DNA from: an uncultured Bdellovibrionales bacterium
GTDB lineage: Bacteria > Bdellovibrionota_C > UBA2361 > J135
Assembly: GCA_964523015.1 (NCBI GenBank)
Contig: CAZFXN010000001.1
Span: 8,976-72,975 of the forward strand
Direction: 5' to 3'
Length of the DNA: 64,000 bases
Part shown: piece after piece, positions 2-17,103 of the stretch
Numbering within the stretch: position 1 is the first letter of the stretch
How the letters are laid out: the number at the start of each line of letters is the position of its first letter
The notes under the pieces: generated by a model
What the model was told of the DNA's origin: nothing
The model's input: the letters and a program-made list of their open reading frames with translations, nothing else
Database searches by the model: none
Translations under genes and position numbers: made by a program

Positions 2-247
2 GGTATAGCTGATGGTGAAGTTTCAATTGAAGACCTAGCCGAACTTAAATCATCCACTAAGATAACTTTTCCTGTCAGATTTGATCATGAGTTAGCTAAT
101 GCTTTTGAGATCTCTAAACTTCCATCACTCGTTGCCATTGACAATTACGATCCAAAGCCAATTTTTTATCGAGGACCATTAGCAATTGAACAGATCTGGG
201 ATTTTATAGATTTCTCCCTTAAAAAAATGAAGGGGAATAAAAGATGA
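2..247 (+). CDS. C-terminal fragment of a thioredoxin-fold T4SS protein (TraF/TrbB-like), 5' partial
   Basis: Open frame from the window edge ends ...TFPVRFDHELANAFEISKLPSLVAIDNYDPKPIFYRGPLAIEQIWDFI, a thioredoxin-fold C-terminus with cis-Pro-like TFPV and a beta-strand. The stop overlaps the next ATG (ATGA). Context is the F-type tra genes. Confidence 0.35.
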   Translation, partial: GIADGEVSIEDLAELKSSTKITFPVRFDHELANAFEISKLPSLVAIDNYDPKPIFYRGPLAIEQIWDFIDFSLKKMKGNKR

Positions 248-1686: not shown

Positions 1687-1705
1687 CGGAATTGGGATTT
1701 AATTT

Positions 1706-3820
1706 ATGGCAACCGGCTCTACTGCGACACTAGTCTCAGCAACCATGCAATTAAGTGGAGAATTCAGCCAAGCCCATATCTTGGATGCGGTGGTTAATTC
1801 TCCAATCGGCAATCTTGCGATCTTTATCTATATAATTTCAGCTATCGGATTTTTTATCAGCGTTGCCTTTTTTCAAAATTATAAAATGGGTATCTGGCTA
1901 GTATTTGGCCCTGCTCTCTGGGATATCTCGGCAAATACAAGAGCAGAACAGGTAAATTTAAATTGGATGTATGCTGGGACGGTAGTACAAGATCAGGATT
2001 GGTTAACTCAATTTAGTAACCAAAGTCTTACTGATGACCTCTCTCTTGATAAGGGTCCTGCAACATTATACGTACTATGGGACTCTGTTGTTAGCGGAAC
2101 TGTACAGAATCTAACCGGTTTACTAGCTAAGATTACAAACGATCCTGCAACCAGGCTTTTTGCCAAAACTAATATTCAGGAGGGAATGCTTGGATCTATG
2201 ATCCAGAGTCCTGAGATAAGAGAGGCTGTACGGATCGCTATGGGCCCAGATTGTACTCCAATGGTCCCTGTTAGTAAGGGAAATGAACCAAAAGAGTGGA
2301 ATTTTTTAGAGATTGATGAACTAGAAACAGCACTTGATAACAGATTAGTTAAGGGAGTTCCAGAATCTGTTGTTCGAAAGTTATGTGAATACTCGATGGT
2401 CTATGAGATCTGGCAGTATGGTTCAAATTTAGAATTTGATCAGATCGATACAGAGCCGTGTGTTGTCAATCCATGGGGAGCTATAGGAACCTTTTCCCTT
2501 GGAAACTCAGAGAAATCAAGTTGTCTAGAATTTTCACGAACTACTTGGCAGGCACTTCAGGTAAGCGCTGAATTAAGATTACGAAATCTATATAAATCGT
2601 CAGGAGCAAACTCTTCAGGTGTTAGCGCACTCGGCAGAGATATCTTACCACAGTGGTCACTTGATATGTTGGCACAAGATGACTCTTCGTTAAAAAAACT
2701 TGTGGCTAGCTACATGCTCAAAAATGAGATGGATGATCTTAATTTTTTAAATCCTTCTCGCTCACTATCTGATGGGGGGAAAACTGAATCAGAGCTGAAT
2801 AAACCAGTGGAAGCAATTGTAGGTTGGCTTGAGAGAGAATCAGCTCAGAGCCAAGCTGTATTTTTTGCAAAATCAGTTCCCTACTTACAAGGGGCACTTC
2901 TTTATACCTTAGCAATTGTATACCCCTTTATCTGCATTATTATGCTGATACCTGGATTTCATACTGCAATGATCACCTGGATGGGTGCTTGGGCTTGGGT
3001 TAAGAGCTGGGATATTATGCTTTACGTCATAAGTCTCCTCTCCGGCATTATGTCAGAAAACATTCTGCATAAAGGGATGCTTCATAATAATATCGTGCAG
3101 AATGAATACGTGGGTACTGATGGAAGTGTCTCAAGCTTTGCAGATAATGTAGTCAGCAGATTGGAGGATATTAATTTTCTACATCTCGCAGTTTATAAAG
3201 CATTTGATGACGTGGATCCAAAGTTCGTTGAAGGTATTATTAACTATATCGTTGCGCTTTCGACAATCTCGATCCCTGCTATTACTGGTATATTCTTTTT
3301 ATGGGGCAGAGCATCCTCTCTCAGCTTATTCACTGATGGCATGAAAAATAAAGCAATGGATGCAACGTCAAGAAGAGCTGCTCAACTTCAAGATCAGTGG
3401 TTAAGAGATATCGAGATCGGACGACAACAAGAAGTTCGAACATCAAGTGCTGTAGGTGCTGCTTGGGGATCAGGTATCGGATTTGCACTAGGAAACTTGC
3501 CTGGCGCAATGGTTGGTACTGCTCTTGGTGCTGTTGCTGGGGAGAAATTTGGTTCTGTTAGTGCCGGATATGACCGTGGGCCAGAAGCAGCTCTATACGG
3601 AGGACGTCCGATGGTTGTCTCCTCTGGTGACTTACTAGATCCGTGGGAGAGCATGACTACTGCAGCAGGAGCCATGGTAATCCAGAAACATTTACTTGAT
3701 GCAACCGGTCAAGCTGAGGCTGATCCAGTATCAACCTATATAAATGGCCCAGATAGGTTAAGGCTAAATCAGAACCTACTCGGAAATAGAAGAAACTTTA
3801 TCTGGGGCGGATCAAGATAG
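1706..3820 (+). CDS. traG: TraG-like polytopic membrane protein (VirB6-like N-domain) of F-type T4SS
   Basis: 704 aa with multiple hydrophobic helices in the first ~550 aa and a Gly-rich C-terminal segment (GAAWGSGIGFALGNLPGAMVGTALGAVAG). It follows the traH-like gene with a 19-nt gap. Confidence 0.45.
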   Translation: MATGSTATLVSATMQLSGEFSQAHILDAVVNSPIGNLAIFIYIISAIGFFISVAFFQNYKMGIWLVFGPALWDISANTRAEQVNLNWMYAGTVVQDQDWLTQFSNQSLTDDLSLDKGPATLYVLWDSVVSGTVQNLTGLLAKITNDPATRLFAKTNIQEGMLGSMIQSPEIREAVRIAMGPDCTPMVPVSKGNEPKEWNFLEIDELETALDNRLVKGVPESVVRKLCEYSMVYEIWQYGSNLEFDQIDTEPCVVNPWGAIGTFSLGNSEKSSCLEFSRTTWQALQVSAELRLRNLYKSSGANSSGVSALGRDILPQWSLDMLAQDDSSLKKLVASYMLKNEMDDLNFLNPSRSLSDGGKTESELNKPVEAIVGWLERESAQSQAVFFAKSVPYLQGALLYTLAIVYPFICIIMLIPGFHTAMITWMGAWAWVKSWDIMLYVISLLSGIMSENILHKGMLHNNIVQNEYVGTDGSVSSFADNVVSRLEDINFLHLAVYKAFDDVDPKFVEGIINYIVALSTISIPAITGIFFLWGRASSLSLFTDGMKNKAMDATSRRAAQLQDQWLRDIEIGRQQEVRTSSAVGAAWGSGIGFALGNLPGAMVGTALGAVAGEKFGSVSAGYDRGPEAALYGGRPMVVSSGDLLDPWESMTTAAGAMVIQKHLLDATGQAEADPVSTYINGPDRLRLNQNLLGNRRNFIWGGSR

Positions 3821-3929
3821 AGTTGCAGTAATCTAACATGCTGATTTTAGGTAATATTTTAAAAACATTGAATGATCAGGGGATCAAACTCACTAATAGT
3901 ACTGATATGGTAAAGAGAAGTGTCAATTT

Positions 3930-4352
3930 GTGCCTATTATTAGATCTATTACATTAATAGAACGAGAGAGGAATGGTATGAGATATCTTTATTGCTTAAT
4001 CGCCCTAGTGTCGTTTTTGTCTATATCTTCTGCAAGTTACGCTGATGCGGATTTTGAAAATAGAACCCCCAAAGCCTCTGCAAAATTAGAAGGCGCCAGT
4101 GGTGAAACACTAGCTTCTGCGGTTGGACATTATGCTAGGTCCCGTTCCTTACTTATTGAAGCTATTAGAGAATTTGATAGGGCCAATAAAATTGCAAGGC
4201 CAGACTCCATATTAGATAGCGAAGAGTGGAGAAGCTCACTTATCTCAAGAGCTGAGGATCTTGAACGGATCCTTTCCCCGCAGCCTAGGGTTACCAAGGG
4301 CGGAGTAAAATTTGAAGCTGATACTAGGCTCTTAAATGTCACCAATAAGTAA
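3930..4352 (+). CDS. secreted hypothetical protein (T4SS locus)
   Basis: ORF with an internal Met at ~3978 giving signal peptide MRYLYCLIALVSFLSISSASYA and a charged soluble domain. It sits between the traG-like and traL-like genes. Confidence 0.4.
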   Translation: MPIIRSITLIERERNGMRYLYCLIALVSFLSISSASYADADFENRTPKASAKLEGASGETLASAVGHYARSRSLLIEAIREFDRANKIARPDSILDSEEWRSSLISRAEDLERILSPQPRVTKGGVKFEADTRLLNVTNK

Positions 4353-4433
4353 AGATCATACATAACTATTTGGAGTCACTCTGAAGTTTTACGAAATTAC
4401 AGGGATGAAATTGAAAGATTAAGTTGAGGGAAG

Positions 4434-4859
4434 ATGGATAACGGAGAGGTAATTGGAGCATTAAATGAAGACTGGAACTTTGCTGGTGCAAATCTGCCTG
4501 AGTGGATGTCTGGCTTTGTTGTTTTTCTCATTGCTTCAGAGATGTTCGACAAGATTAGTCGATCGATGCCGATCCTGCTGATGATGTGGATAGGCACAAC
4601 TTTTCTTTTAGCTGCTGCAAGAAAATCATTTCCTGATGAAGAGCGTGGCTTAAGAAATGCAGTCATGGTTGCACTTGGATTTATTCCAATTGGACTTCCA
4701 GCTCCATCTAAATTTTGTCCGATGTGGAGTGGCGCTCCAGTTAAAGAGTTAGGAGAGGATAGTCATTACCAAACTTTAAGATTAGATGAAGCAATTTTAC
4801 GGATTGATGACGGGGAAGAGCCAAACCCTACATACACTCCAAGAGTAGTGAGACAATAA
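4434..4859 (+). CDS. traL: TraL-like small inner-membrane T4SS protein
   Basis: 141 aa with two hydrophobic helices (FVVFLIASEMF; MMWIGTTFLLAAA). It sits immediately upstream of the traE-like gene, as in the F-type traL-traE-traK-traB order. Confidence 0.35.
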   Translation: MDNGEVIGALNEDWNFAGANLPEWMSGFVVFLIASEMFDKISRSMPILLMMWIGTTFLLAAARKSFPDEERGLRNAVMVALGFIPIGLPAPSKFCPMWSGAPVKELGEDSHYQTLRLDEAILRIDDGEEPNPTYTPRVVRQ

Positions 4860-4880
4860 ACAAGGTTATTATAGGTAAAT

Positions 4881-5525
4881 ATGGGAAAGGTTGCGGAGAT
4901 ATTAAGAGCTAGTGAACTGAGAGCCCCGCTCAGTGATAATGACACCATTCGATTATGGGAGAGTCATCAGGAGCAAGCCACACTCTGGCGCTCATTAACT
5001 TTAATTCAAGTTCCAATTACTTTAATCTCTTTAGTACTAGCTCTGGTTTTATGGAGCACAAGAAGCGTAACGCTGAATGTTCCAGCTAAACCATTGCCTG
5101 GAATTTATGCTGCTCAAGATATTCCCGATAGTGAATTTATTGATTTTTCAACTGACTACATTAATTTAATTGCAACATATCAACCAGCAGTTGCTCGTAG
5201 ACAGTTTGAAGAGGCTAGACGAATGCTTTGGAGCCAGATGATTCAGGCTTTTGATTCCGACATGATGGGAACAGAGCTAAGAGCGATCGAAAACACGAAG
5301 CGTACTCAGATCTATTTTGTTGATCCAACAAAAGTAGGAATTAAACGGGAAGGACGAAACGTAACCGTATCTCTTCTTGGTGATCGTTATAAAATTATTG
5401 CTGGCAAAGAGATGCCTGCAGTTAAAACTGAATTTGTAATTACAATGAATACAATTCCAAAGAATAAGTTTAATCCTTATGGAATTGTTGTGACCAATGT
5501 AGCTCTTAAAAATGTGGAGAAATAG
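4881..5525 (+). CDS. traE: TraE-like (VirB8-type) bitopic T4SS protein
   Basis: 214 aa with a single N-terminal TM helix (LIQVPITLISLVLALVLW) and a ~150 aa periplasmic domain. Position is between the traL-like and traK-like genes. Confidence 0.5.
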   Translation: MGKVAEILRASELRAPLSDNDTIRLWESHQEQATLWRSLTLIQVPITLISLVLALVLWSTRSVTLNVPAKPLPGIYAAQDIPDSEFIDFSTDYINLIATYQPAVARRQFEEARRMLWSQMIQAFDSDMMGTELRAIENTKRTQIYFVDPTKVGIKREGRNVTVSLLGDRYKIIAGKEMPAVKTEFVITMNTIPKNKFNPYGIVVTNVALKNVEK

Positions 5526-6342
5526 GATTTTACAAAAGGCAAGCTGTATGGAAACAAAAGTAAAATTGAAAAGTATTGCTCTCATATTCTTACTAGTTGG
5601 TATTGCGACTACCGCTCTAGCTAGGGATGTTGAGTATAACGAGGGCGATGGGGAAATCTCTATCTGGGTAACACCAGGAGAACCAACAAGAGTAGCATTT
5701 CCCGCTATGATTGCTGGTGGATATAAGCGCAAAGATTCAAGTCTTGTCCTTGATAAAAAGGATCATGATCTCATTTTATTTGGCAACCAAACTATCTCTC
5801 CAAATGGAGAAGCTTTTATTGTTCGACTTGAAGATGGACGCTCTTACTCAATTCGAGCTAAAAGAGCGAGTGCTGATAAACCTCGTGATGATGCGGTAAG
5901 TATTACTGACAGTCGTGGCTCAATAATTCTTTCAAAAGAGGAGGAAGAACCAACTTATAGAGAGAAAAGATTTGAGTATGCCCCGCCTAGTCAGATAAGT
6001 GGCTTAATGCGTGAAATGGTTCTGACATCTGAGTTTGGTAAATCAACGATAGCTGGATATCGAAAAAGTGAAAAGTATAGAGGACAAGTTGTACTTAGTG
6101 ACGGCACAATGTTGGCTACTATTGACACTATCTTTATTGGGCCAAATCTTTGGGGATATGTTTTAGATACAAAGAACTTATTAAATACAACACAGAAAAT
6201 TAATCCAGCATCCTTCAGACTTGATGGCACAAGAGCTGTTTCAGCAAGCAATTGGGAATTAACTCCTAAGCCATTTAATATTGAACAGCAGATTGCTGGA
6301 AAAGATTCAACAAAAATTTATATCGTAACTAAGGCACGCTAG
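5512..6342 (+). CDS. traK: TraK-like (VirB9-type) secreted T4SS protein
   Basis: 276 aa with a signal peptide (LKSIALIFLLVGIATTALARD) and a beta-rich domain. It overlaps the traE-like stop and precedes the traB-like gene. Confidence 0.5.
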   Translation: MWRNRILQKASCMETKVKLKSIALIFLLVGIATTALARDVEYNEGDGEISIWVTPGEPTRVAFPAMIAGGYKRKDSSLVLDKKDHDLILFGNQTISPNGEAFIVRLEDGRSYSIRAKRASADKPRDDAVSITDSRGSIILSKEEEEPTYREKRFEYAPPSQISGLMREMVLTSEFGKSTIAGYRKSEKYRGQVVLSDGTMLATIDTIFIGPNLWGYVLDTKNLLNTTQKINPASFRLDGTRAVSASNWELTPKPFNIEQQIAGKDSTKIYIVTKAR

Positions 6343-6352
6343 AAAAGTAAGG

Positions 6353-7528
6353 TTGCATATGAAACAAAAGATTAAAGATTACTTACTACTGCTACAAAAT
6401 GATCGGAAGACCCAGATCTTAACGGGCATTGTACTGGTTATGTTAGTGGCATTTGTGTTTAATTCTCCACCAACAAGGGCCCCACAAAAAGGACCTAAAG
6501 TAACTCAACTTGGAACTGGCGGAACAGGGACTAAAGAAGCTTATGAGGATCTTTTAAATGCGTTCTCTCGAGATCTACAAGTTACCCAGGATCAACTAAA
6601 AAAAGTACAGCAAGAACTAAAGGATAAAGACAAATCCTTCTCTGATTACGACGCTAAAACAGCAGCTATCTTTACTAAAATTCTTGAAAGAATGAATTCT
6701 GGTGAGATGGGAAGTTCTGGCGGGGTTAGTGGGGCTTATGCTCCAATTGATATAGACGGTAGTTCTAGTGCAATTGGAGCTTCTGGATCATTAGCACCTG
6801 GCTCACAGGAACTTGAGCCGTTTGGATTAGATCAATCAGATCCATTACCTCCTCCACCTCCTCCAAGAAACAGATCAGCTTTCGTAGCAGTTGGTGACTC
6901 AGTAAGAATTAAACTTCTTGCGGGCGTGAATGCTCCAACAGACGGAACTCCTTATCCTGTAGTTTTTAAACTAGATGATGACGTGCTTGGTCCTGATGGA
7001 TCTCGCTTGCCATTAGGAGAAGCAAGACTTATTGCCGCAGCCCAAGGATCGCTTAGTGATTCTAGAGCACTCTTTAGACTTACCGATCTTAGCATTAGAC
7101 TTCCTGATGGCCAAAGACGGACTTATAAAGTTGATGGATGGGTTGTCGGAGAAGATGGCATTCGTGGCATGAGGGGAAGGTTAATCGATTATCTTGGCAA
7201 GGCTCTTGGGGCAGCTGGTGCAATTGGTGCAGCAGAAGGGGCAGCAAATGCTCTTCAGGCTGCAAAAACAACTTCTGTTATCTCAGATGATGGAGGTCTC
7301 TCTAATATCGCCACTGGAGGTACTGCTGAATTTATTACTGCAGGTGCTCTATCCGGAGGATTAGGAGCATGGGGAGATATTATCAAGGATCGAATCGATC
7401 AGTTAGTACCACATGTAGAAGTATTGTCTGGCAGAGGAGCAACAGCAATATTTGCAAAATCTGTAGTTATTGATGGTCTATTTGAAGCTCTTGAGGACGA
7501 TAGCACTGCCTTTGGTTCATTAGATTAG
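6353..7528 (+). CDS. traB: TraB/VirB10-like T4SS envelope-spanning protein
   Basis: 391 aa with an N-terminal TM helix (ILTGIVLVMLVAFVF), a Pro-rich linker (DPLPPPPPPRNR) and a C-terminal beta domain (VRIKLLAGVNAPTDGTPYPVVFKL...DGWVVGEDGIRGMRG) typical of VirB10/TraB. The track start is TTG at 6353; ATG at 6359 has a better RBS. Confidence 0.55.
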   Translation: MHMKQKIKDYLLLLQNDRKTQILTGIVLVMLVAFVFNSPPTRAPQKGPKVTQLGTGGTGTKEAYEDLLNAFSRDLQVTQDQLKKVQQELKDKDKSFSDYDAKTAAIFTKILERMNSGEMGSSGGVSGAYAPIDIDGSSSAIGASGSLAPGSQELEPFGLDQSDPLPPPPPPRNRSAFVAVGDSVRIKLLAGVNAPTDGTPYPVVFKLDDDVLGPDGSRLPLGEARLIAAAQGSLSDSRALFRLTDLSIRLPDGQRRTYKVDGWVVGEDGIRGMRGRLIDYLGKALGAAGAIGAAEGAANALQAAKTTSVISDDGGLSNIATGGTAEFITAGALSGGLGAWGDIIKDRIDQLVPHVEVLSGRGATAIFAKSVVIDGLFEALEDDSTAFGSLD

Positions 7529-7545
7529 TTTTTTGTGGAGTTGTT

Positions 7546-8010
7546 ATGAAAAGTAATAAGAGTGGGCTTTTAAAAATTGTGATGGTTGCTACAGCATTAT
7601 TCATCTCAGGGTGTACAGCTATTGGAGATAGATTAAATCCATTTCAAGAGGAGCCAGATCCAATTGCTTTCTTGGGAGATCGAGATGATCACGCTCTAAA
7701 CGGAACAAAAGCGAAAGAAGAGACCGCCAGAACTGCCCTTGAACAGATGGCTAGCTATAGAAGGACGAACTTCCCAGAACCGGTACATCCAGTTATACAA
7801 CCAGCCGTTGTAAGACTTATGTGGATACCGGATCACTTAAACAAAAGCGGGGATCTAGTTCCAGACCACTACTATTATTTAAAAGTTCTTAGCGATCGCT
7901 GGGCAGTACAGGATGCCTTTGAGCTCGAGTCACAACTTGGTCCAAACAAGGATCCAACAAATTTACCTTACGTATATAGCGATGATCGAAAAACTATAAG
8001 AGGACGGTAA
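7546..8010 (+). CDS. traV: TraV-like outer-membrane lipoprotein
   Basis: Lipobox LFISGC. C-terminal VRLMWIPDHLNKSGDLVPDHYYYLKV resembles the TraV signature (RvWvaPw.D..GdLh...yvY). Confidence 0.55.
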   Translation: MKSNKSGLLKIVMVATALFISGCTAIGDRLNPFQEEPDPIAFLGDRDDHALNGTKAKEETARTALEQMASYRRTNFPEPVHPVIQPAVVRLMWIPDHLNKSGDLVPDHYYYLKVLSDRWAVQDAFELESQLGPNKDPTNLPYVYSDDRKTIRGR

Positions 8011-8026
8011 TATTTATTAAGTTTAG

Positions 8027-8596
8027 TTGAATATGATTACTGAGAACAGAAAAACATATATAGCAGCAATAAAGGTAGTCGTACTCTTGGGATGCATTGT
8101 CTTTCTCGTTAGCTGCTCAAGCCAAAAACCTCCTGTTGCGAAAACACCACCTTTATATGACACGGCAAAAAGACAGTTAGCTCCTGAGCCGGTTTATAAT
8201 AGACTGCGCTGGGTCCATTTACCTGAAGTTATTCCTTACAAGGACAATAACAAGGACAAGAAAAAAATCTCTAAGAGCCAAGACTCACTAGAAGACAGGC
8301 CAATGATTTTTCCAATTATGAATTTTGATCTCAAAGATGGAACATTAGCTGAAGCTGCCCAGATGATTGGGGCTAGTGCCAGTTATCGTAGCTACTGCGA
8401 TCCATCAATCGCAGACAAACGACTATCTTTAAATATGCTTGGCACAATTCATGAGTTAGCCAATAGTATTTCAAGGTTAGTTGATGTTGAGATTATAATT
8501 GATCATTCTGCTAGGGAAGTTAGGTTTATGCCCCTAGGCGTAGAGAATAAATTAAGGTTTTTTGATAATACGGTAAGTGAATATGAGCATAGATAG
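8027..8596 (+). CDS. T4SS-associated lipoprotein with secretin-N/TcpQ-like C-terminal domain
   Basis: Lipobox LVSCSS. The C-terminal segment LAEAAQMIGASASYRSYCDPSIADKRLSLNMLGTIHELANSISRLVDVEIIID has an STN/N0-like pattern. It overlaps the traC start by 20 nt. Confidence 0.4.
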   Translation: MNMITENRKTYIAAIKVVVLLGCIVFLVSCSSQKPPVAKTPPLYDTAKRQLAPEPVYNRLRWVHLPEVIPYKDNNKDKKKISKSQDSLEDRPMIFPIMNFDLKDGTLAEAAQMIGASASYRSYCDPSIADKRLSLNMLGTIHELANSISRLVDVEIIIDHSAREVRFMPLGVENKLRFFDNTVSEYEHR

Positions 8597-11351
8597 GTTA
8601 ACACGGGCTCGACTTTATAAAGATGAAGCTCTGTTTAATAAACTACTCCCTTTTGCCAGATATGATATCGAGCAAGGTGTGTTTGTACACGCCGATGCTT
8701 CATTATGGTTGATGTACGAGTTGGAGCCTCTCCTTATAACTGCCACCTCTGATGCCTCTGCTTATCAAACATGCTCTAGTATTCAAGAGCTCTTAGATTC
8801 ATTAGATGTTAGTATTAGTGTCCAGTTTAATTGGGTGGTAACGTTCGACATTGAAGGTCTACTTCAAAAGGCACTCGAGCAGTACCCAGTATCCGGCGTT
8901 GCTGGTTGGATGGCTCGTCGCTGGAACAGAATGATGAAAAAGGCAGCTCGTAGCTCTTTTATTCATCAACGACCTAGAAAAATGCGACTTATCCTTTCTT
9001 TTAGACATGATCCACCATGGAGCAAGGGAAATATATTTCAAGAGCTTAAGAGAGCTTTTTCTATCCTGATTAAAGGTAATGTTGGATTCTCTGCAGATCA
9101 AAGACGAGCAGAGTATCTAAACTACGCCAACAAATTTAAAGGAGAGATTGAGGGTAAAGTATCTCGACTAAGAGACCTTGGTTTCTATCCAAAAAAAGTT
9201 GATGGGCAAGCTTTAATTGATACACTCTATCCGATACTGAATCGACGAAGCGTTAAAGGTGGTAAGTTTAAAAAAGGGCGCACCTCCTCAATCCCTGTGC
9301 CAGTTTTTGATCCGCTTGATTTATTATCAAATCAACTCTCTGAAACTGCTGTTGAGCATCCGCAAAATGGTATTATCAAAAAAGATGGTAGAGTTTTTAG
9401 AACTGTCTCGATGGTAAAATCTCCTAATCAAGCTTTTCCTCTGATGATTGCTCCGCTTCAATCGGCGCCATATGAAAATATTATAAGTGTTACTTATTCA
9501 AAAGATCCGATGCAAGCTCAGATCAAAAAACTTGATACGCTTGATAGCACCCTTGGTCTTCGTGAATTTACTAGCATGGGTAGAGGTAATCAAAAGATTC
9601 AACATCAGATTAGATCTATTAGGGCCGCAAGAGAGAGCTTATATAATAACTCCACTCAAATTGTCCGATTAGGTATCCATCAAACATTTATCTGTCAAAA
9701 TGAACAGGAAGCTATCAGAGCAACCTCTGAGGCAATGGCAGCTTTTCCTCAATTAAATGGTGCTCGTGGCATGGTTCACGAAATTGCTGACCTTGGTGTA
9801 ATGATCAATTCATTACCGGGATGCTATGAGCCAGCACTTGATGGACGTGGATGGACATCTGTATTGCAATCTTCACGCGCAGTTAGAATGCTTCCTTTAT
9901 GGGGCAATTGGAAGGGCAGTAAAGGCTCACTCTTTCTCCTACCAAATCTTTGGAACCGTGAATTAGTAGGATTCGATCTATTCGACTCTAATATTGCACC
10001 TAACGTATTAATAAGCGGAGTATCTGGTGCTGGTAAGAGTTATCTCCTTAACTTTCTTCTGATAACTCTTAATAGAGGGCACTATTCAACTCTCGCAAAT
10101 GGAATGACTGTTGAACGTCCACCAATTACCTTCGTCTTTGACAAAGGAATGCCTAATCAACCGTGTGGATTTGAAAAGATTGCTCATCTATTTGGTGGAA
10201 GAATATACGAAGCTACCCCTTCTAAAGCACCAGCCATGAACTTCTTGGCTCGCTTAGGAGACTGCCCTCACGATAACACCAACGAAGATTTCAAAGATCT
10301 AGTGGATATCTGCTCTGACATAGTTGCAGATATGGCTTCTGAAAATAATCGTCCGTTATCACGACTTCAGGTAGGTGATATTATCACTGCTCTTTTAGAA
10401 GCCCATAGAATCTATAGAGCTGGTCCAATGAAGAGGCAGTTTATTTTAAGTGATGTTGTCGCAGTTCTCCGTGCTCCAAAGAGAGTCGATGAGGATGAGG
10501 CTACAGCTATGCGTCGTGTCGAGATCGCTCTTTTAATGTCTGAGTACTATGGAGAGGGTACATATGCTAGATTCTTTGATAGACCAGGAGCATTAAGACT
10601 AAAAGAAAGATTTATCGTGTTCGATCTTAAGGGATTAAGTAGAAATCCTGACCTACAAAGGGTATTTTTAAAGATCGCTATGCTCTGGGCTGACGAGGTC
10701 ATGAACGATCCAAAAGAGCTCGACTCGAGAAAGGTTCTTGTGTTCGACGAAGCTCATGATCTTATCGGTAAAACATCTTCAGGTGTTATCGAATCAGCTT
10801 TCAGACTTTATCGTAAGAGAAAAGGTATTGTTATTGCCGCTTCTCAATCTGGTGAAGATTTCTATGTTGGTGCTGGTGGACAGGCTATCGTACAAAACAG
10901 CGCGCATAAGATCTTTTTGAGACAAGATCCAAGTAAGTTTCATTTAACAGCAAAAGCGTTCAATCTAAATGAACAACAGAGTGATGTAATTATGCGTTTA
11001 CGTACTATTAAAGGTGTTGAATCTCAATTTTATCTTCTCTCAGATATCGGAGAAGCCGCCCTTGTTCTACCTCTTGAGCCGGCGTACTACTGGGTTAGTA
11101 CAAATAATGGTGACGACAATCAATTATTTCAATCAGTACTTCAGGAATGTAATGGTGATTTTGCAGCAGCACTTGAGAGAGTAAGTATTATAGCTCCAAG
11201 TGGCGCAAGTGCGTTTGCACAGTACAGAGCTGCTATGCAGCAGGCTCAAGAGCAATCTCGAAATGGCGAAAATTCCGTTTCAAAAACAATTAATACCGCT
11301 TTAGGTCAAAATACAGGTTCAAATTCTATTATAAAGGAGCAGCAAATATGA
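8577..11351 (+). CDS. traC: TraC/VirB4-family T4SS ATPase
   Basis: 924 aa with Walker A GVSGAGKSYLLNFLL and Walker B VLVFDEAHDL. The length fits F-type TraC. Confidence 0.85.
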   Translation: MNMSIDRLTRARLYKDEALFNKLLPFARYDIEQGVFVHADASLWLMYELEPLLITATSDASAYQTCSSIQELLDSLDVSISVQFNWVVTFDIEGLLQKALEQYPVSGVAGWMARRWNRMMKKAARSSFIHQRPRKMRLILSFRHDPPWSKGNIFQELKRAFSILIKGNVGFSADQRRAEYLNYANKFKGEIEGKVSRLRDLGFYPKKVDGQALIDTLYPILNRRSVKGGKFKKGRTSSIPVPVFDPLDLLSNQLSETAVEHPQNGIIKKDGRVFRTVSMVKSPNQAFPLMIAPLQSAPYENIISVTYSKDPMQAQIKKLDTLDSTLGLREFTSMGRGNQKIQHQIRSIRAARESLYNNSTQIVRLGIHQTFICQNEQEAIRATSEAMAAFPQLNGARGMVHEIADLGVMINSLPGCYEPALDGRGWTSVLQSSRAVRMLPLWGNWKGSKGSLFLLPNLWNRELVGFDLFDSNIAPNVLISGVSGAGKSYLLNFLLITLNRGHYSTLANGMTVERPPITFVFDKGMPNQPCGFEKIAHLFGGRIYEATPSKAPAMNFLARLGDCPHDNTNEDFKDLVDICSDIVADMASENNRPLSRLQVGDIITALLEAHRIYRAGPMKRQFILSDVVAVLRAPKRVDEDEATAMRRVEIALLMSEYYGEGTYARFFDRPGALRLKERFIVFDLKGLSRNPDLQRVFLKIAMLWADEVMNDPKELDSRKVLVFDEAHDLIGKTSSGVIESAFRLYRKRKGIVIAASQSGEDFYVGAGGQAIVQNSAHKIFLRQDPSKFHLTAKAFNLNEQQSDVIMRLRTIKGVESQFYLLSDIGEAALVLPLEPAYYWVSTNNGDDNQLFQSVLQECNGDFAAALERVSIIAPSGASAFAQYRAAMQQAQEQSRNGENSVSKTINTALGQNTGSNSIIKEQQI

Positions 11352-11656
11352 AATCTTTAATTTTAACTCGAATCTTTCAATCTTTTTGTGTAGTGTTGAT
11401 AGGAATACTGACTGGTTGTGCAGCAGTTAATCCATTTGTACATACAAAAACTGTTTACCGTGAAGTTCCTATTAGTGGACCAAAGGCTGATGTTCCTCCT
11501 GGAGTAGTTGAATATGTTTGGGAAGAGCCTATGGTCGATGTTGTTGACGTGCCGCCAGGATTAGATCCTGAAGGAAGATATTATAGACCTGGTCATCAAG
11601 CTGTAGTTGAAGTTCGCCAAGGTAGATGGAGACATTACAAACTGGAGAATAACTAA
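11348..11656 (+). CDS. small lipoprotein
   Basis: Lipobox ILTGCAAV. ATGA overlap with the traC stop. Confidence 0.4.
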   Translation: MKSLILTRIFQSFCVVLIGILTGCAAVNPFVHTKTVYREVPISGPKADVPPGVVEYVWEEPMVDVVDVPPGLDPEGRYYRPGHQAVVEVRQGRWRHYKLENN

Positions 11657-12059
11657 GTATAGGAGGTTTATTATGGGAGTTCTCTCAGCACGATCTTTTG
11701 TTGCACCGATACTAGATAAGAAAAATCTAATTGCCATCGTTCTTATTGCTGTATTCTTTGCTGTCTATAGGCTTTCAGGGGGCTCTATTGAAACTGGTTC
11801 AAATCAAAGTCGCTCAAACTTAAAAGTAGCACCAGTAAGTGATTCATTTTTCGATCAGATGACTGAATCAGAGTCAATCTCTCCAATTTCAGATCTTAAA
11901 AAGATTCAAGGGAATGAATCCGCTAGGCCAACCAAAAGGAAAGCTGCCTCAAGTGATCTACTAGATGATATTTTGGTTGATAGGAAACCTAAGGAGGAAG
12001 CCCCTACTGGATCAAACTCCCAGCTTGATGATATCGAAAGGAGTCTTGGATTACGTTAA
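11607..12059 (+). CDS. hypothetical bitopic membrane protein
   Basis: Likely true start is ATG at ~11673, preceded by the strong RBS TAGGAGG. N-terminal TM helix LIAIVLIAVFFAVY. Confidence 0.4.
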   Translation: MKFAKVDGDITNWRITKYRRFIMGVLSARSFVAPILDKKNLIAIVLIAVFFAVYRLSGGSIETGSNQSRSNLKVAPVSDSFFDQMTESESISPISDLKKIQGNESARPTKRKAASSDLLDDILVDRKPKEEAPTGSNSQLDDIERSLGLR

Positions 12060-12073
12060 TTTAAAATTGTTAT

Positions 12074-12604
12074 ATGATAGAGGGACAGATTACATTCAAT
12101 CGAAGTTGGCGCTCTCAATGGCAACGCATGATCGTTTTCTTTGTTCTCTCTGGAATAAGTATTTTTTTGTCCTCATATTTTCCTGAAAGCATCATAAGAG
12201 GTCGCTTATTTACCATCGCTGGCGAAGCATTTTTTTTGAACCTTCCTCTATTTAGTTTTTTACCTTTGTACGGATTAGTTAATTTAATGTTGCCGATATA
12301 CGATGCTAGATTTACGATTGATAATCGTGGTCTTGAATCTCGGATAGGAATATTGTCTCTTAATCAACGAATTGTAAAGGTTCGGTATGAAGACATTCGC
12401 AGCCTTGAGCTCAATCAAACTTTACTAGATCGCGGTATTAACGTCGGTGCTATCTCAATTGGCAGTGCTGCAACAAGTACCATTGAAATTGTCTTTGACG
12501 GACTAGTTGAGCCCGTCGAGATTAAAAATCTTATACAACTAGAAAGAGATTCAAGGTTACGTAAAGCGTCATCTGATGAGAAAAAGATTCAGGCAGCGCT
12601 ATAG
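12074..12604 (+). CDS. membrane protein with bacterial PH (bPH_2/YdbT-like) domain
   Basis: Two N-terminal TM helices followed by a domain matching the bPH_2 pattern (RFTIDNRGLESRIGILSLNQRIVKVRYEDIRSLELNQTLLDRG...IEIVFDG). Confidence 0.5.
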   Translation: MIEGQITFNRSWRSQWQRMIVFFVLSGISIFLSSYFPESIIRGRLFTIAGEAFFLNLPLFSFLPLYGLVNLMLPIYDARFTIDNRGLESRIGILSLNQRIVKVRYEDIRSLELNQTLLDRGINVGAISIGSAATSTIEIVFDGLVEPVEIKNLIQLERDSRLRKASSDEKKIQAAL

Positions 12605-12621
12605 TTTTTTGGAGGTATTTT

Positions 12622-13689
12622 ATGAGGTTTGTTTTTAAATCTGCCATAATGGCAAACTATCTGTCAGTAGTCCTGTTAGCGATCCTGATAAGTACATTAA
12701 TTATTTCCAATTCTGCTAAGGCTGATAAGGTCGTAGAAAATCTTAAAGATAAAATCTCAACTCTTAAAGCTAGCGTAGAGGGATCTGATACGAGCGATCG
12801 TGATTTTAGTGCCGAACAGGAAGAGTTCGACCGCATGAGAGAGCAACTCCTTGCTGCAGAAAATGAAATTATAAAAGGGGAAACCAAGAAATCATTAAAT
12901 CAAGCGACTGTATCTGCTGATTATGAATATAAAAAGGAATATCAAAAGGAAGCAAAACTACCTAAAAACGATGATAGCTTTACGGAAGATCTTGATGATT
13001 CCTTAGAGAAGGATGCTAGAGCTGAGATGGCTAAAAAAGCAATCGACAGTACCTTTCAAGAGAATGAAGAATTAAAAGCAAAGTATCAAACTGCACTTAC
13101 CCAACTAGCTGCTAGAAACAAAGAATTGACAGCTCTAAGATCAGAGAAAACTTCTGTTACATCTGAGTCAAAAGTATCTAGAGATAAAATTGCATCCTTA
13201 CAAAAAGAGCTTCAAGGAGCAAAAAATAAACTCCTGGTTAGTGAAGCAGAGGTGGAAAGATTATCCGCACTAGCTGGATCCGGAGCTAAACATGCTAGAC
13301 TCCCTGCTCCTGCTACTGGACGCTCTTCAGTTTACTCAACTGCTAATAGTAACGTACAGACAACTTCCATTAAGCCTGAAACTTCTGATCTAACTGTTTT
13401 AACAGTGGTTGCTAGCAAAGCATACCTACGAACTGGTCCTGGAAAAGATAATTCTCCACTAATGGAGGTACGAAGCGGTACTAAACTAGCTGTAGAAGAC
13501 AGACAGGGAAATTGGTTTAGAGTGACAACGCCTACTGGCACACGTGCCTGGATCGCTTCCGAAGTAGTTGCATTTGGACCGAGCAGTACTGCTCGTCCAT
13601 CCCAAACTGTAAAAATTAAAGCTTCAAGTGAAAAAAATGATCAGATCGAAGAAAAAGCGTTTGAGCTTATTAATAAGCATTCTCGCTAG
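12622..13689 (+). CDS. secreted coiled-coil protein with C-terminal SH3b domain
   Basis: Signal/TM at the N-terminus, a long heptad-rich region (EEFDRMREQLLAAENEI...LQKELQGAKNKLLVSEAEVERL) and a C-terminal SH3_3-like segment AYLRTGPGKDNSPLMEVRSGTKLAVEDRQGNWFRVTTPTGTRAWIASEVV. Confidence 0.5.
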   Translation: MRFVFKSAIMANYLSVVLLAILISTLIISNSAKADKVVENLKDKISTLKASVEGSDTSDRDFSAEQEEFDRMREQLLAAENEIIKGETKKSLNQATVSADYEYKKEYQKEAKLPKNDDSFTEDLDDSLEKDARAEMAKKAIDSTFQENEELKAKYQTALTQLAARNKELTALRSEKTSVTSESKVSRDKIASLQKELQGAKNKLLVSEAEVERLSALAGSGAKHARLPAPATGRSSVYSTANSNVQTTSIKPETSDLTVLTVVASKAYLRTGPGKDNSPLMEVRSGTKLAVEDRQGNWFRVTTPTGTRAWIASEVVAFGPSSTARPSQTVKIKASSEKNDQIEEKAFELINKHSR

Positions 13690-14173
13690 TCTTTTACTAT
13701 TAACGATTGGGTTTCCTAATTTGCCAATCATTGCAGCCCCTAAATTTCCTGGGGATGCATTGAGTACATTTGTTTTTCCACTTTTTGCACCAAGAAAATC
13801 TAGCCCCTTTGGCGAGCGTAAGCATCCGATACTTCGTAAGGTCCGCCACCATGCTGGAATAGATCTAGCTGCCCCTAAGGGAACCCCTATACGTTCGATT
13901 ATGAGTGGTACTGTAGTGTTTGCTGATGACTATGAGGGGTATGGCAAACTAATTACTATTCGACATAATGATGAGCTTACAAGCCACTATGGGCACTGTG
14001 ATAAGATTAAAGTTGAAGTTGGTAAAAGAATAAAAGCAGGTCAGATTATTGGGACAGTAGGTGAAACAGGGCTTGCTTCTGGACCGCACCTTCATTTTGA
14101 AATACGGATAAAAGGAAAGGCTTACAATCCTGAACTCCTTATCCCAGAGTTAAATTCTGAGGCTAAGGGATAA
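13628..14173 (+). CDS. M23 family (LytM-type) peptidoglycan endopeptidase
   Basis: Signal peptide, HAGIDLAAPKGTPIRS (HxxxD metal site) and GYGKLITIRHNDELTSHYGHCD...GPHLHFEIR (HxH motif). It overlaps the upstream gene by ~55-62 nt (GTG 13628 or ATG 13637). Confidence 0.8.
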   Translation: MKKMIRSKKKRLSLLISILASLLLLTIGFPNLPIIAAPKFPGDALSTFVFPLFAPRKSSPFGERKHPILRKVRHHAGIDLAAPKGTPIRSIMSGTVVFADDYEGYGKLITIRHNDELTSHYGHCDKIKVEVGKRIKAGQIIGTVGETGLASGPHLHFEIRIKGKAYNPELLIPELNSEAKG

Positions 14174-14458
14174 TCCTGATTGGTTTCAACTAGTTAGTAG
14201 CCTACCTAGAACTCTGCTAACATATCACCGTATGCAACTAAGAGGATGATTATCCCCATAACATTAGTAATAAAAATGGGACATCTGCCCAACGTGAGTT
14301 GTCGCCAAATTTTATTTTTTTAGGGTGCTTTTTAATATCCCAAAAGGTTATAACTTTGGTTACCTGCCTAGGATGTAAGATTGCAACCTATTAAAGATAG
14401 TATTTGGGGGCAATTCATAAGTAAGCATCTGTCGAAATAAATTAATATAGAAAATATA

Positions 14459-14902
14459 GTGAAAAAACTAATTGGAGTTACTATGAATGAAGTTAATTCT
14501 CTTTTACAAAAAGTAAAGGGAAGCTTTCTATCTACTGGTCAATATATTGGGGCTGTATTTTATGCACCTACAAGAGGCCAGAGTCAGATTGCTCTTTTCT
14601 TACTTGGAGTTATTATCCTATCAGGCGGTCTTACAATCCATGCAATTGCTCAAGGTGATGTGGGATCAGACCTCGTAGGTGAATACAATGACGAGCGTGT
14701 TTCTGAGGCCGTTAATAGAATCTTCGCTTATATCGAAGGTTCCTTTGGAGCCTTAATCATGGTTGCTGCTGGTTTAGGAGCAATTATGGCGGCTGCGTTC
14801 GGACAATATAGAGCTGCTTTAGGATTACTTGTTGTAGCGGTTGGATCATTTATCCTTCGCTCTCTTGTTGGAACATTCTTTAACACAGAGACAATTCAAT
14901 AA
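14459..14902 (+). CDS. T4SS pilin-like protein, paralog 1 (TrbC/VirB2/TraA-type architecture)
   Basis: Long leader with a TM helix ending AIAQ, then a ~85-aa region with two hydrophobic helices rich in small residues (GSFGALIMVAAGLGAIMAAAFG...GLLVVAVGSFILRSLVGTFFNTETIQ). Likely true start is ATG at 14483. Confidence 0.5.
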   Translation: MKKLIGVTMNEVNSLLQKVKGSFLSTGQYIGAVFYAPTRGQSQIALFLLGVIILSGGLTIHAIAQGDVGSDLVGEYNDERVSEAVNRIFAYIEGSFGALIMVAAGLGAIMAAAFGQYRAALGLLVVAVGSFILRSLVGTFFNTETIQ

Positions 14903-14940
14903 CGACAATCCAGTAATCAAAAGAGCTTGATAAGAGCTCT

Positions 14941-14970
14941 AAAAGGGACCTTTAGGGGTCCCTTTTATTT
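14941..14970 (+). terminator. rho-independent terminator after pilin paralog 1
   Basis: aaaaGGGACCtttagGGGTCCCtttta: 6-10 bp GC stem followed by a T-run. A second hairpin agagct..agctct lies at 14921..14939. Confidence 0.7.
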
Positions 14971-15031
14971 TGTCCCCTTTTTATTTTTTCATTATTGACG
15001 GTCATACAGTGATAGTCGTATGATTGATCTA

Positions 15032-15087
15032 ATGTAGCATTAGCTACATATTTATCTAAGCGTTTATCTAAGCGTTTATCTAAAGCG
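15032..15087. repeat. 7-bp-arm palindrome (atgtagc-atta-gctacat) followed by 3 tandem copies of tttatctaa(a)gcg
   Basis: Direct reading of 15032..15049 (palindrome) and 15051..15087 (12-nt unit x3). It lies ~30 nt upstream of the OMP gene start. Confidence 0.8.
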
Positions 15088-15115
15088 GACCTTATTAAAA
15101 TCAAGCGGAGACCGT

Positions 15116-15943
15116 ATGGCATTCTATAAAAAATTCCCTTTTGTTGTTGCAGTGCCTTTTCTTTATATCTCTCCTATGATTGCCAAGGCTGAGACTGGGC
15201 CATTGGGATTTGGTTCTCCTCAGTTTAGCGAAGATATGGAAACTGACCGTCCTGATTTTTCTGAGGGCACTAAAACTGTTGAAGCTGGACACCTACAGAT
15301 AGAAGCGGGGTATACCTTTACTGATAATAATGACGGTGGAGTGATAACTGAATCACACGCAGTTCCAGGGGTACTGGTCCGTATTGGATTAGCTCCAAAA
15401 TATGAACTCAGAATAGGTTGGCAAGGATTTATAGATTCGGAAACAACATCATCAGGTGACAATGCTCAGTCAGATGGTGTTGGCGATATGTCAATTGGCA
15501 CAAAGTTTAGACTTCAAGAAAACGATGCAGGATGGGATGTAAGTAGTATAATAGAAACCTCCTTACCTGTTGGAGATGATGAGGTTGCATCCGATAAACA
15601 TGAGCCTGCTGTTAAATTACTATTTGCCAAGGACTTATCTAGTGACCTTTCATTTGCAACAAATTTGAATGCTACCTACGTTAGTGGCAGTACAGAAAGG
15701 TATTATGAGCTAGCGGCGTCGGCATCATTTGGCACTGACCTAACTGACACCATCGGGCTATTTTTAGAATACTATGGGCAATTTCCTCTTGAAAATGTCC
15801 CTGAAGAGAATCTTCACACTTTAAATGGTGGTCTAACCCTCGCGCTAGATGAAAACCTACAGCTAGATGCATTTGTTGGAACCGGTCTTAATGCTGAAGC
15901 AGATGATTTCTTTACCGGCTTTGGTGTGAGTTTCCGAATGTAA
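15116..15943 (+). CDS. outer-membrane beta-barrel protein (transporter-type OMP)
   Basis: Signal peptide ending AKAET. Alternating hydrophobic beta-strand pattern, aromatic-rich, C-terminal ...GFGVSFRM. It sits between pilin paralogs 1 and 2. Confidence 0.45.
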   Translation: MAFYKKFPFVVAVPFLYISPMIAKAETGPLGFGSPQFSEDMETDRPDFSEGTKTVEAGHLQIEAGYTFTDNNDGGVITESHAVPGVLVRIGLAPKYELRIGWQGFIDSETTSSGDNAQSDGVGDMSIGTKFRLQENDAGWDVSSIIETSLPVGDDEVASDKHEPAVKLLFAKDLSSDLSFATNLNATYVSGSTERYYELAASASFGTDLTDTIGLFLEYYGQFPLENVPEENLHTLNGGLTLALDENLQLDAFVGTGLNAEADDFFTGFGVSFRM

Positions 15944-16157
15944 ATAGTTCTTGATTTATAACTACCTAATTTGTCAGTTAAATATCATCCCCTAACAGGA
16001 TTGATAAACTAAGTCACATATACCTTAAAACCACACATAACACTGCTCATCAAGGTGATATGTCCAACTCTAGCTAGTTCGTATCGCATCAAGTTCTCAC
16101 CAGGTTTCTTTCTCGGTTTTCAACAAAAAAAACGTTAATTTAAACACGGAGACGACA

Positions 16158-16589
16158 ATGTCTGTCTATACGTCATTGATAACCAAAGTAAGTAACTCGA
16201 CACAAAATGTAAGCCAGTATTTAGGCCAGTATTTAAGCACGATGTTTAATGCTCCAACAAAGAAGCAAACTCAATTTATGCTCTTCTGCCTAGGAATAAC
16301 GCTAGTTGCTTCAGGCATTACCGTTGAATTGCTAGCTCAAGGCGATGTGGGATCTGACCTCGTTGGTGAATATAACGATGAGCGTGTAGGTGAAGCTGTT
16401 AATAGAATCTTTGCCTATATTGAGGGATCTTTTGGAGCTTTAATCATGGTAGCCGCTGGATTAGGAGCAATTATGGCAGCTGCCCTTGGTAGCTACTCAG
16501 CAGCTATTGGACTCTTAGTAGTGGCAGTTGGAGCTTTCGTACTTAGATCTCTAGTTGGAACATTCTTTAATACTGAAAGTATTCAGTAA
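16158..16589 (+). CDS. T4SS pilin-like protein, paralog 2
   Basis: The C-terminal 85 aa are near-identical to paralog 1 (GDVGSDLVGEYNDERVGEAVNRIFAYIEGSFGALIMVAAGLGAIMAAALG...LRSLVGTFFNTESIQ), but the N-terminal leader is unrelated. RBS GGAGA upstream. Confidence 0.5.
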   Translation: MSVYTSLITKVSNSTQNVSQYLGQYLSTMFNAPTKKQTQFMLFCLGITLVASGITVELLAQGDVGSDLVGEYNDERVGEAVNRIFAYIEGSFGALIMVAAGLGAIMAAALGSYSAAIGLLVVAVGAFVLRSLVGTFFNTESIQ

Positions 16590-16616
16590 TAATTGGGTGA
16601 TACTGTGCATAAAAGT

Positions 16617-16653
16617 GAGGTTAGTCTACTGATAAACCTCTCTTTTATATTTT
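16617..16653 (+). terminator. putative terminator after pilin paralog 2
   Basis: gaggtt...aacctc stem followed by tcttttatatttt. The loop is long, so prediction is weaker. Confidence 0.4.
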
Positions 16654-16717
16654 AAATGATCTATTAGCGATATATAACAGTTGAATAATTTCAGCCCTAA
16701 GTTAGAATAGTACTATT

Positions 16718-17068
16718 ATGAACCGCCAGCACATACAAAGCCTACTCATTCTAGTTGCCTATGCTCTTATCTTAAGCATCTCTGTGACTGCTTACTCTAA
16801 TATTAATTTTATTGACCTCTCTGATTTTCCAGGCAATGCCCCTGGTTACTATAACGATTTACGGATCGGAGAAGTTGTGAACCGGATCCTTAACTACCTA
16901 GAAGGAAGCCTTGGTGCGTTGATTATGGTTAGTGCCGGATTGCTTGCAATCCTTAGTGCCGCTTTTGGAAACTATAGAGCTTCTATAGCACTCCTTGTGG
17001 TTGCGATCGGGCCATTCATTCTCCGGTCATTTGTTGGTAGCTTTTTTAATGATGAAAATATTCGGTAG
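16718..17068 (+). CDS. T4SS pilin-like protein, paralog 3 (divergent)
   Basis: 116 aa. Signal peptide, then the same two-helix core with ~50% identity (VVNRILNYLEGSLGALIMVSAGLLAILSAAFGNYRASIALLVVAIGPFILRSFVGSFFNDENIR). Confidence 0.5.
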   Translation: MNRQHIQSLLILVAYALILSISVTAYSNINFIDLSDFPGNAPGYYNDLRIGEVVNRILNYLEGSLGALIMVSAGLLAILSAAFGNYRASIALLVVAIGPFILRSFVGSFFNDENIR

Positions 17069-17103
17069 GTATTTCTTTATCTCGCTATCATGATCTTTCA
17101 AGA

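Follow-up and report, generated by a model that had tools for sequence, protein, structure and literature searches.

The window analyzed here is a 64,000-nucleotide (nt) stretch from the assembly of an uncultured Bdellovibrionales bacterium (GenBank GCA_964523015.1, contig CAZFXN010000001.1, positions 8,976 to 72,975 of the forward strand). It carries an operon for an F-like type IV secretion system (T4SS) and, shortly after it, three small open reading frames (ORFs) on the same strand (14459/14483-14902, 16158-16589, and 16718-17068 in the ORF listing), whose products are related to one another. Here, we consider the identity of these three genes, the history of their duplication, and their relationship to the secretion system that precedes them.

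Three paralogous genes and their relatives

The genes and their predicted parts are given below, with lengths in amino acids (aa) and a vertical bar at the predicted cleavage site.

14483..14902, + strand: paralog 1, an ORF of 139 aa, corresponding to database protein P0001
14483-14650, + strand: leader of paralog 1, 56 aa, ending AIA|Q
14651-14899, + strand: predicted mature pilin of paralog 1, 83 aa
16158..16589, + strand: paralog 2, an ORF of 143 aa
16158-16337, + strand: leader of paralog 2, 60 aa, ending LLA|Q
16338-16586, + strand: predicted mature part of paralog 2, 83 aa, with the loop LGSYS where paralog 1 has FGQYR
16718..17068, + strand: paralog 3, 116 aa, with a short Sec-type signal of ~25 aa (VTA|Y) and a mature part of ~91 aa

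Paralog 1 most likely starts at the ATG at 14483, which has GGAG 6 nt upstream and yields the 139-aa P0001; the alternative GTG at 14459 is a less likely start. Paralogs 1 and 2 are 70% identical in protein sequence overall and 90% identical (75/83) over the core that runs from the A|Q junction to the C-terminus, so that an earlier note on this DNA, which had described three tandem paralogs with a near-identical core in the first two, was right on this point. At the DNA level the same core forms a 255-nt direct repeat (14648-14902 versus 16335-16589) with 78% identity. The leaders of the two proteins, however, are not "entirely different" as the note had held: they are ~30% identical, their global alignment scores 13.5 standard deviations above that of shuffled sequences, and both carry the motif K..Y...GQ..GA...AP[ST]..Q.Q..LF..G, which occurs family-wide. 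Within the leader of paralog 2, positions 16213-16235 hold a perfect 12-bp tandem duplication (GCCAGTATTTAG, 1.9 copies) that encodes SQYLGQYL and accounts for the 4-aa insert in this leader relative to that of paralog 1. The description of paralog 3 as about 50% identical, with a short signal, also agrees with what we found, because it is 51-53% identical to the other two overall (68% from the YND motif onward) and begins with a short signal-like segment. It retains all 17 of the 17 family-invariant residues and matches positions 28-136 of the family hidden Markov model (HMM) with 141 bits.

These proteins belong to a large family that has gone without a functional name. Paralog 1 has homologues in 532 clusters at 90% identity, and a profile search collected 663 clusters at 50% identity; every source name among the members is "hypothetical protein", and they come without a precomputed Pfam domain. 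A scan of one genome per GTDB species gave 155 coding stretches, from which 79 loci were kept, all of them in metagenome-assembled genomes (MAGs) labeled Bdellovibrionota, Bdellovibrionales, Oligoflexia, Deltaproteobacteria or Dadabacteria. Two family loci occur in each of at least eight MAGs, and there are several with copies in tandem, as doubles or as a triple. Some members (P0144, P0181, P0184, P0211, P0216, and others) are 190-310 aa long with two matches each to the pilin profile, and appear to be fused double pilins. In 30 loci the family gene is an orphan copy beside housekeeping genes such as IspG and PanC, and no T4SS-related conserved neighbors were detected around these orphans. 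A tblastn search of paralog 1 against 72,556 plasmids returned nothing relevant; thus, the family is not found on known plasmids.

Relationship to the TrbC/VirB2 pilins

Across 90 family copies, the predicted cleavage site is strongly constrained, with Ala at position -1 in 87/90, Ala, Val, or Ser at -3 in 85/90, and Gln at +1 in 60/90. The predicted (A/V/S)-x-A|Q pattern occurs in at least 85/90 copies and stands in register with the A-x-A|Q motif of VirB2. The leaders of 56, 60, and 25 aa are followed by predicted mature parts of 83, 83, and 91 aa (paralogs 1, 2, and 3, respectively), and hydropathy shows in each mature part two hydrophobic segments joined by a loop of 3-4 residues. An AlphaFold2 model of paralog 1 (predicted local distance difference test score 80) has a pair of leader helices followed by a hairpin whose arms are helices 78-113 and 117-140. 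The loop contains Arg or Lys in 84/90 copies, and Ser in paralog 2 and its orthologues (LGSYS). This architecture agrees with the published description of VirB2 homologues as proteins of 100-140 aa with long signal peptides and two transmembrane helices (10.1101/2022.04.28.489814).

Profile-profile comparison points to the same relationship. As reference we used an alignment of eight annotated VirB2/TrbC proteins from plasmids; the VirB2 sequence used is 99.2% identical to a pTi record. Alignment of the family profile to this reference with hhalign gave a probability of 88.9% (E 2.4e-6, 76 columns), and a more diverse family profile gave 91.6% (E 8e-7). The real score of 41.1 lies 5.8-10 standard deviations above shuffled controls, which reached 12.6 +/- 2.7 (maximum 24.4) for 100 column-shuffled profiles and 16.4 +/- 4.3 (maximum 34.3) for 100 block-shuffled profiles. 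The alignment is in register over the A-x-A|Q junction, the first amphipathic/hydrophobic helix, the 'FG..R' loop, and the second helix. The VirB2 motif A45-x-A47-Q48, invariant in the reference alignment, matches the junction of the family, and VirB2 Arg91, a lumen-exposed residue whose mutation abolishes T-pilus formation, is aligned to the Arg in the loop of paralog 1 (FGQYR). Among individual proteins, PF04956 (TrbC/VirB2) matches 33/64 members at E <= 1 and 18/112 at E <= 0.01 (best E 3.4e-6), and no other Pfam family matches more than one member at E <= 0.01. The NF010431 VirB2 model gives weak matches to only 6/64 members, and single-sequence and profile searches of PDB sequences produced chance matches only. 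The term "pilin-like" chosen in the earlier note is thus borne out by homology to TrbC/VirB2, both by hhalign and by PF04956, together with the long leader, the A-x-A|Q site, and the two-helix architecture. The note had looked to an unrelated family assignment or a missing cleavage site as grounds for abandoning pilins; no unrelated family was matched, and a cleavage-type site is present.

The genomic setting connects the family to secretion. The operon that precedes the three genes is defined by Pfam and NCBIfam matches and has the same order in dozens of MAG loci; two of its coordinates matter here.

244..14173, + strand: F-like T4SS operon
4434-4859, + strand: gene in the TraL/VirB3 position, 141 aa

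Its order is an unknown protein of 480 aa, a TraG_N/VirB6-like protein, a secreted protein of 140 aa, a TraL-like protein of 141 aa, TraE, TraK, TraB/TrbI, and TraV, and then a lipoprotein, TraC/VirB4, a second lipoprotein, a protein of 150 aa, bPH_2, SH3, and an M23 peptidase. Paralog 1 lies ~300 bp 3' of the last of these genes. A family member directly follows the T4SS block (TraL-like, TraE, TraK, TraB, TraV, TraC, SH3, M23) in ~50/79 loci, a conserved synteny that upholds the proposed tie to an F-like T4SS. The operon contains no other hydrophobic pilin candidate, and the ORF 5' of the TraL-like gene (3930-4352) encodes the secreted, non-hydrophobic 140-aa protein.

On this evidence we consider it probable that the three genes encode prepilins of a highly divergent, previously unannotated branch of TrbC/VirB2, and that they provide the pilus subunit of a chromosomal F-like T4SS. 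Several points weigh against this. No family protein of the window reaches a Pfam or NCBIfam gathering score, the closest figure being the 10.3 bits of paralog 1 against the PF04956 cut-off of 27.9, and paralogs 2 and 3 have no match to PF04956 at E <= 0.1. A probability near 90% from hhalign is, for short hydrophobic proteins, good but not decisive. Further, the mature part of 83-91 aa is slightly longer than the typical 60-80 aa, and the gene is the last of its operon, which is not the place of traA or virB2. Homology, architecture, synteny, and the age of the duplication and the selection on it are what the sequences show; processing, pilus assembly, and the part played by the extra copies are inferred from them.

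In a different reading, the products are not pilus subunits at all but some other small, two-transmembrane protein of the inner membrane linked to the T4SS, such as an entry-exclusion/immunity protein, a holin-like protein, or an accessory protein resembling VirB3. The lack of any curated HMM threshold being passed is compatible with this, as are fold searches that were unspecific and the many copies that stand as orphans beside housekeeping genes. However, a non-pilin would have to account for a VirB2/TrbC profile match that runs in register over the cleavage site, the helices, and the loop Arg and exceeds its shuffled controls, and for PF04956 being the sole Pfam family to recur among the members. 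The VirB3 position is already occupied by a separate gene (4434-4859), and the operon would be left without a pilin. We therefore regard a non-pilin function as improbable. Still less probable, in our estimation, is that these are F-type TraA pilins, with TraQ-assisted insertion and N-acetylation by TraX as in the F paradigm. The neighboring genes do match F-type models (TraE, TraK, TraV, TraC_F_IV, TraG_N), the 56-60 aa leaders resemble the 51 aa of TraA, and paralog 3 has a weak match to NF041281 (TraA_gammapb; E 0.0078, 16 bits against a cut-off of 50). Yet the gene does not lie 5' of the TraL-like gene, and a TraQ or TraX homologue was not seen in the cluster. Profile comparison gave no signal either: the F TraA sequence used was verified at 100%, and because a homologue search found only relatives at least 81% identical to it, which makes a shallow profile, the alignment was widened with three more distant plasmid TraA sequences, and hhalign returned a probability of 0.2-0.3% against the family. 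This is a weak test, since VirB2 against TraA is equally blank (0.4%), and the null shows only that the family is closer to VirB2/TrbC in sequence. Of the two profile comparisons that the earlier note had suggested, then, the one with TrbC/VirB2 was positive and the one with TraA negative.

Assignment to a branch of TrbC/VirB2, as we favor, leaves clear differences from the characterized members (PF04956; Agrobacterium VirB2, RP4 TrbC, pKM101 TraM). The family shares with them the profile-profile match, the long leader ending in A-x-A|Q, the two-helix mature hairpin, the 'FG..R' loop whose Arg aligns to the lumen-exposed Arg91, and the location in a T4SS cluster. It differs in having a conserved acidic N-terminal segment (YND.R..AVN) and a C-terminal TFFN motif, and in the final position of its gene within an operon that is otherwise F-like, not VirB-like; the proteins of the window also differ in falling below the Pfam gathering score and in their longer mature part. 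With the F-pilin TraA (PF05513 / TIGR02758) the resemblance is one of organization, namely, a prepilin in which a leader of ~50 aa precedes two hydrophobic helices, accompanied by TraL, E, K, B, V, C, and G partners, whereas there is no detectable sequence relationship, and traA is the first gene, immediately 5' of traL, rather than the last.

Duplication, selection, and possible roles of the copies

The earlier note had proposed a nucleotide comparison of the first two genes as a test for recent gene conversion, and the outcome is negative. Over the core of paralogs 1 and 2, nonsynonymous divergence (dN) is 0.088 and synonymous divergence (dS) is 1.44, giving dN/dS of ~0.06; 36/84 codons differ only synonymously, and the longest identical run of DNA is 17 nt. 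The synonymous divergence and the shortness of identical runs rule out recent conversion between the two. From the same dS and dN/dS, with the 78% DNA identity of the repeat, it follows that the duplication is old and that both copies have been held by strong purifying selection.

In a neighbor-joining tree of 90 family copies, paralog 1 groups with the first member, and paralog 2 with the second member, of each tandem pair from two related MAGs (loci L005 and L006), where the two pilin genes are directly adjacent. Paralog 3 falls on a long branch with the orphan copies L064 and L058. We accordingly read paralog 2 as an ancient tandem duplicate and paralog 3 as an older, more divergent copy. 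In the three genomes that have both tandem copies, four sites separate the paralogs, all in the loop or the second helix, and eight sites are of a genome type, meaning that they are common to the copies within a genome and differ between genomes. The latter are confined to the first helix and the N- and C-terminal tails, with none in the leaders of these three genomes. The pairs have a within-genome dS of 1.0-2.0; genome-type sites at the mature termini despite such saturation suggest co-evolution of the termini or old, partial gene conversion.

If the proteins are pilins, their processing would be expected to follow the scheme of known systems. The prepilins would be inserted into the inner membrane by way of their leaders, which in paralogs 1 and 2 (56-60 aa) are predicted to form an amphipathic helix and then a hydrophobic segment, and in paralog 3 are of the short Sec type. 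Signal peptidase I would cut at the conserved (A/V)-x-A|Q site, and the mature two-helix hairpin of 83-91 aa would be extracted and polymerized by the T4SS. In the structures of the F-pilus and the T-pilus the termini face outward, and here too the termini would point outward and the inter-helix loop towards the lumen, as in solved pili. Paralog 2 would thus present the same outer termini as paralog 1, but it has lost the loop Arg/Lys that aligns to VirB2 Arg91. The three paralogs might serve as alternative or co-assembling subunits, and the pilin switching or heterogeneity that the earlier note suggested may likewise take place.

It could instead be supposed that paralog 1 alone works as a pilin, the second and third genes being redundant duplicates headed for decay. 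Paralog 2 lacks the basic loop residue present in 84/90 copies, and alteration of Arg91 abolishes T-pilus formation in VirB2, and paralog 3 has no clear ribosome-binding site and a weak terminator. Against this stand the dN/dS of ~0.06 between paralogs 1 and 2 with saturated dS, and the persistence of the LGSYS loop in the paralog 2 orthologues of L005 and L006; in a further locus (L009) the only operon-linked copy has a loop of this type. Paralog 3, for its part, has kept all 17 family-invariant residues, and extra copies are common across the lineage. We regard decay of the second and third genes as improbable, and the best-supported view is one in which paralog 1 would be the canonical pilin gene at the end of the operon and paralogs 2 and 3 conserved extra subunits.

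Several pilin genes in one T4SS are not without precedent, which tempers the claim of the earlier note that the arrangement is unusual. The rvh T4SS of Anaplasma and other Anaplasmataceae has 8-15 virB2 paralogs, believed to underlie an antigenically variable surface organelle (PMC3556328), and Bartonella Trw, with its VirB2-type trwL copies in tandem, forms variable surface pili from duplicated TrwL and TrwJ (PMC4676284). In both, as here, a chromosomal T4SS is equipped with several VirB2-type paralogs, in tandem or dispersed. What remains unusual is the setting: an F-like scaffold, an SH3/M23 pair, and the host lineage. There are only 2-3 copies, relatives have beside the operon a gene like that of a type IV coupling protein (T4CP), which systems of the Bartonella Trw type lack, and the host is an uncultured, probably free-living or predatory member of the Bdellovibrionota and not an animal pathogen. 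The pattern of variation differs as well. In Anaplasma the variation among paralogs falls into two stretches, one preceding an N-terminal Cys and the other close to the C-terminus, whereas here the copies within a genome agree in their terminal regions and vary in leader and lumen loop. With surface termini in common and a systematic difference at the residue aligned to VirB2 Arg91, this pattern provides a natural experiment on the charge of the pilus lumen.

The basic conclusion, that these are T4SS pilins, is an extension of known biology rather than the description of a new kind of system, since multi-copy pilins are known from Trw and rvh. It would nonetheless provide a functional annotation for a family that is labeled "hypothetical" wherever it is named and has no curated family match (the 532 and 663 clusters above), and the analysis shows that an uncultured lineage of Bdellovibrionota as a whole has a conserved chromosomal T4SS, accompanied by a probable pilin family of its own. 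A literature search for T4SSs in Bdellovibrionota, which included a comprehensive T4SS review of December 2025, found nothing specific.

The surrounding operon and intergenic features

Just 5' of the first pilin gene, at 12622-14173, lie an SH3-domain protein and an M23 (LytM-type) endopeptidase, and ~50 loci (L005-L036, for example) have the same pair in this position. A lytic transglycosylase of the SLT/VirB1 type was not seen, and the pair may be the cell-wall-opening enzyme of the T4SS. In two relatives (L098, 2916-7070 on the - strand, and L100, 2-3833), a T4CP-like gene (PF12696 TraG-D_C, 27.6 bits against a cut-off of 22) and an unknown gene of 665 aa are divergently arranged upstream of the operon; the counterpart region of the source genome falls outside the window. 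The operon island of these relatives lies between housekeeping genes, and a relaxase domain was not detected in it. Given these flanks, the absence of a relaxase domain from the island, and conservation in the lineage, the T4SS is chromosomal and clade-wide and not an obvious mobile element. Another locus (L094) has three unknown genes before the 480-aa ORF, in a region upstream of where the window starts, and one of them (1807-2772) has a weak thioredoxin-like match (E 0.06). The F-type proteins TraF and TrbB have a thioredoxin fold; a likeness of the L094 gene to them is not established.

A bolder proposal, which we regard as rather unlikely, is that the operon and its pilins amount to a new subtype of T4SS, one that has become fixed in the chromosome throughout an entire uncultured clade of Bdellovibrionota. 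Its F-like scaffold would be combined with a VirB2-like pilin at the 3' end of the operon and with a T4CP-like gene, an SH3/M23 endopeptidase pair would stand in for the lytic transglycosylase, and a recognizable relaxase would be missing. The pilus, mixed or switchable, would be made from at least two co-evolving pilin paralogs that have their outer termini in common and a lumen loop with or without a basic residue, and it would serve contact with prey or host cells and not plasmid conjugation.

Between and behind the pilin genes are the following features.

14940..14967, + strand: intrinsic-terminator-like hairpin after paralog 1, with a 12-bp stem and then a T run (-27.8 kcal/mol, z -4.3)
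15032-15049, + strand: palindrome 5' of the outer-membrane gene, present only with the species-specific insertion
15051-15083, + strand: 12-bp unit TTTATCTAAGCG repeated 2.8 times, 5' of the outer-membrane gene, likewise present only with the species-specific insertion
15116..15943, + strand: outer-membrane gene between paralogs 1 and 2, matching PF13557 (Phenol_MetA_deg) with E 7.9e-22
~16609..16648, + strand: terminator-like hairpin after paralog 2 (fold of 16590-16665, -20.4 kcal/mol, z -4.2), followed by UAUAUUUU

The product of 15116-15943 is read as an outer-membrane beta-barrel protein from its PF13557 match, and the gene, the 12-bp repeat, and the palindrome are all where the earlier note had placed them. 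In a tblastn search among the fetched loci this gene matches only L001-L003, all from the species of the window itself, and in L005 and L006 the pilin genes are adjacent without it. It is thus an insertion, and a role as a component of the T4SS is ruled out.

The suggestion that every paralog has its own terminator-like hairpin holds for paralogs 1 and 2, and not for paralog 3, which is followed by a weak hairpin only (z -1.8). A promoter-like site lies 5' of paralog 3 at 16681-16708, its -10 element ending ~10 nt before the ATG. Paralog 3 has no obvious Shine-Dalgarno sequence, and, with the -10 element so close to the ATG, its mRNA may be leaderless or nearly so. Separate regulation of the three genes is plausible, because each has its own upstream intergenic region and a downstream hairpin, albeit a weak one in the case of paralog 3. 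In an Rfam scan of 13900-17300, no match came near a gathering score. The remainder of the window is ordinary chromosome, in which two paralogous genes for AAA_14 + DUF4143 ATPases (26233-27450 and 46973-48142, - strand) are located ~20 kb apart.

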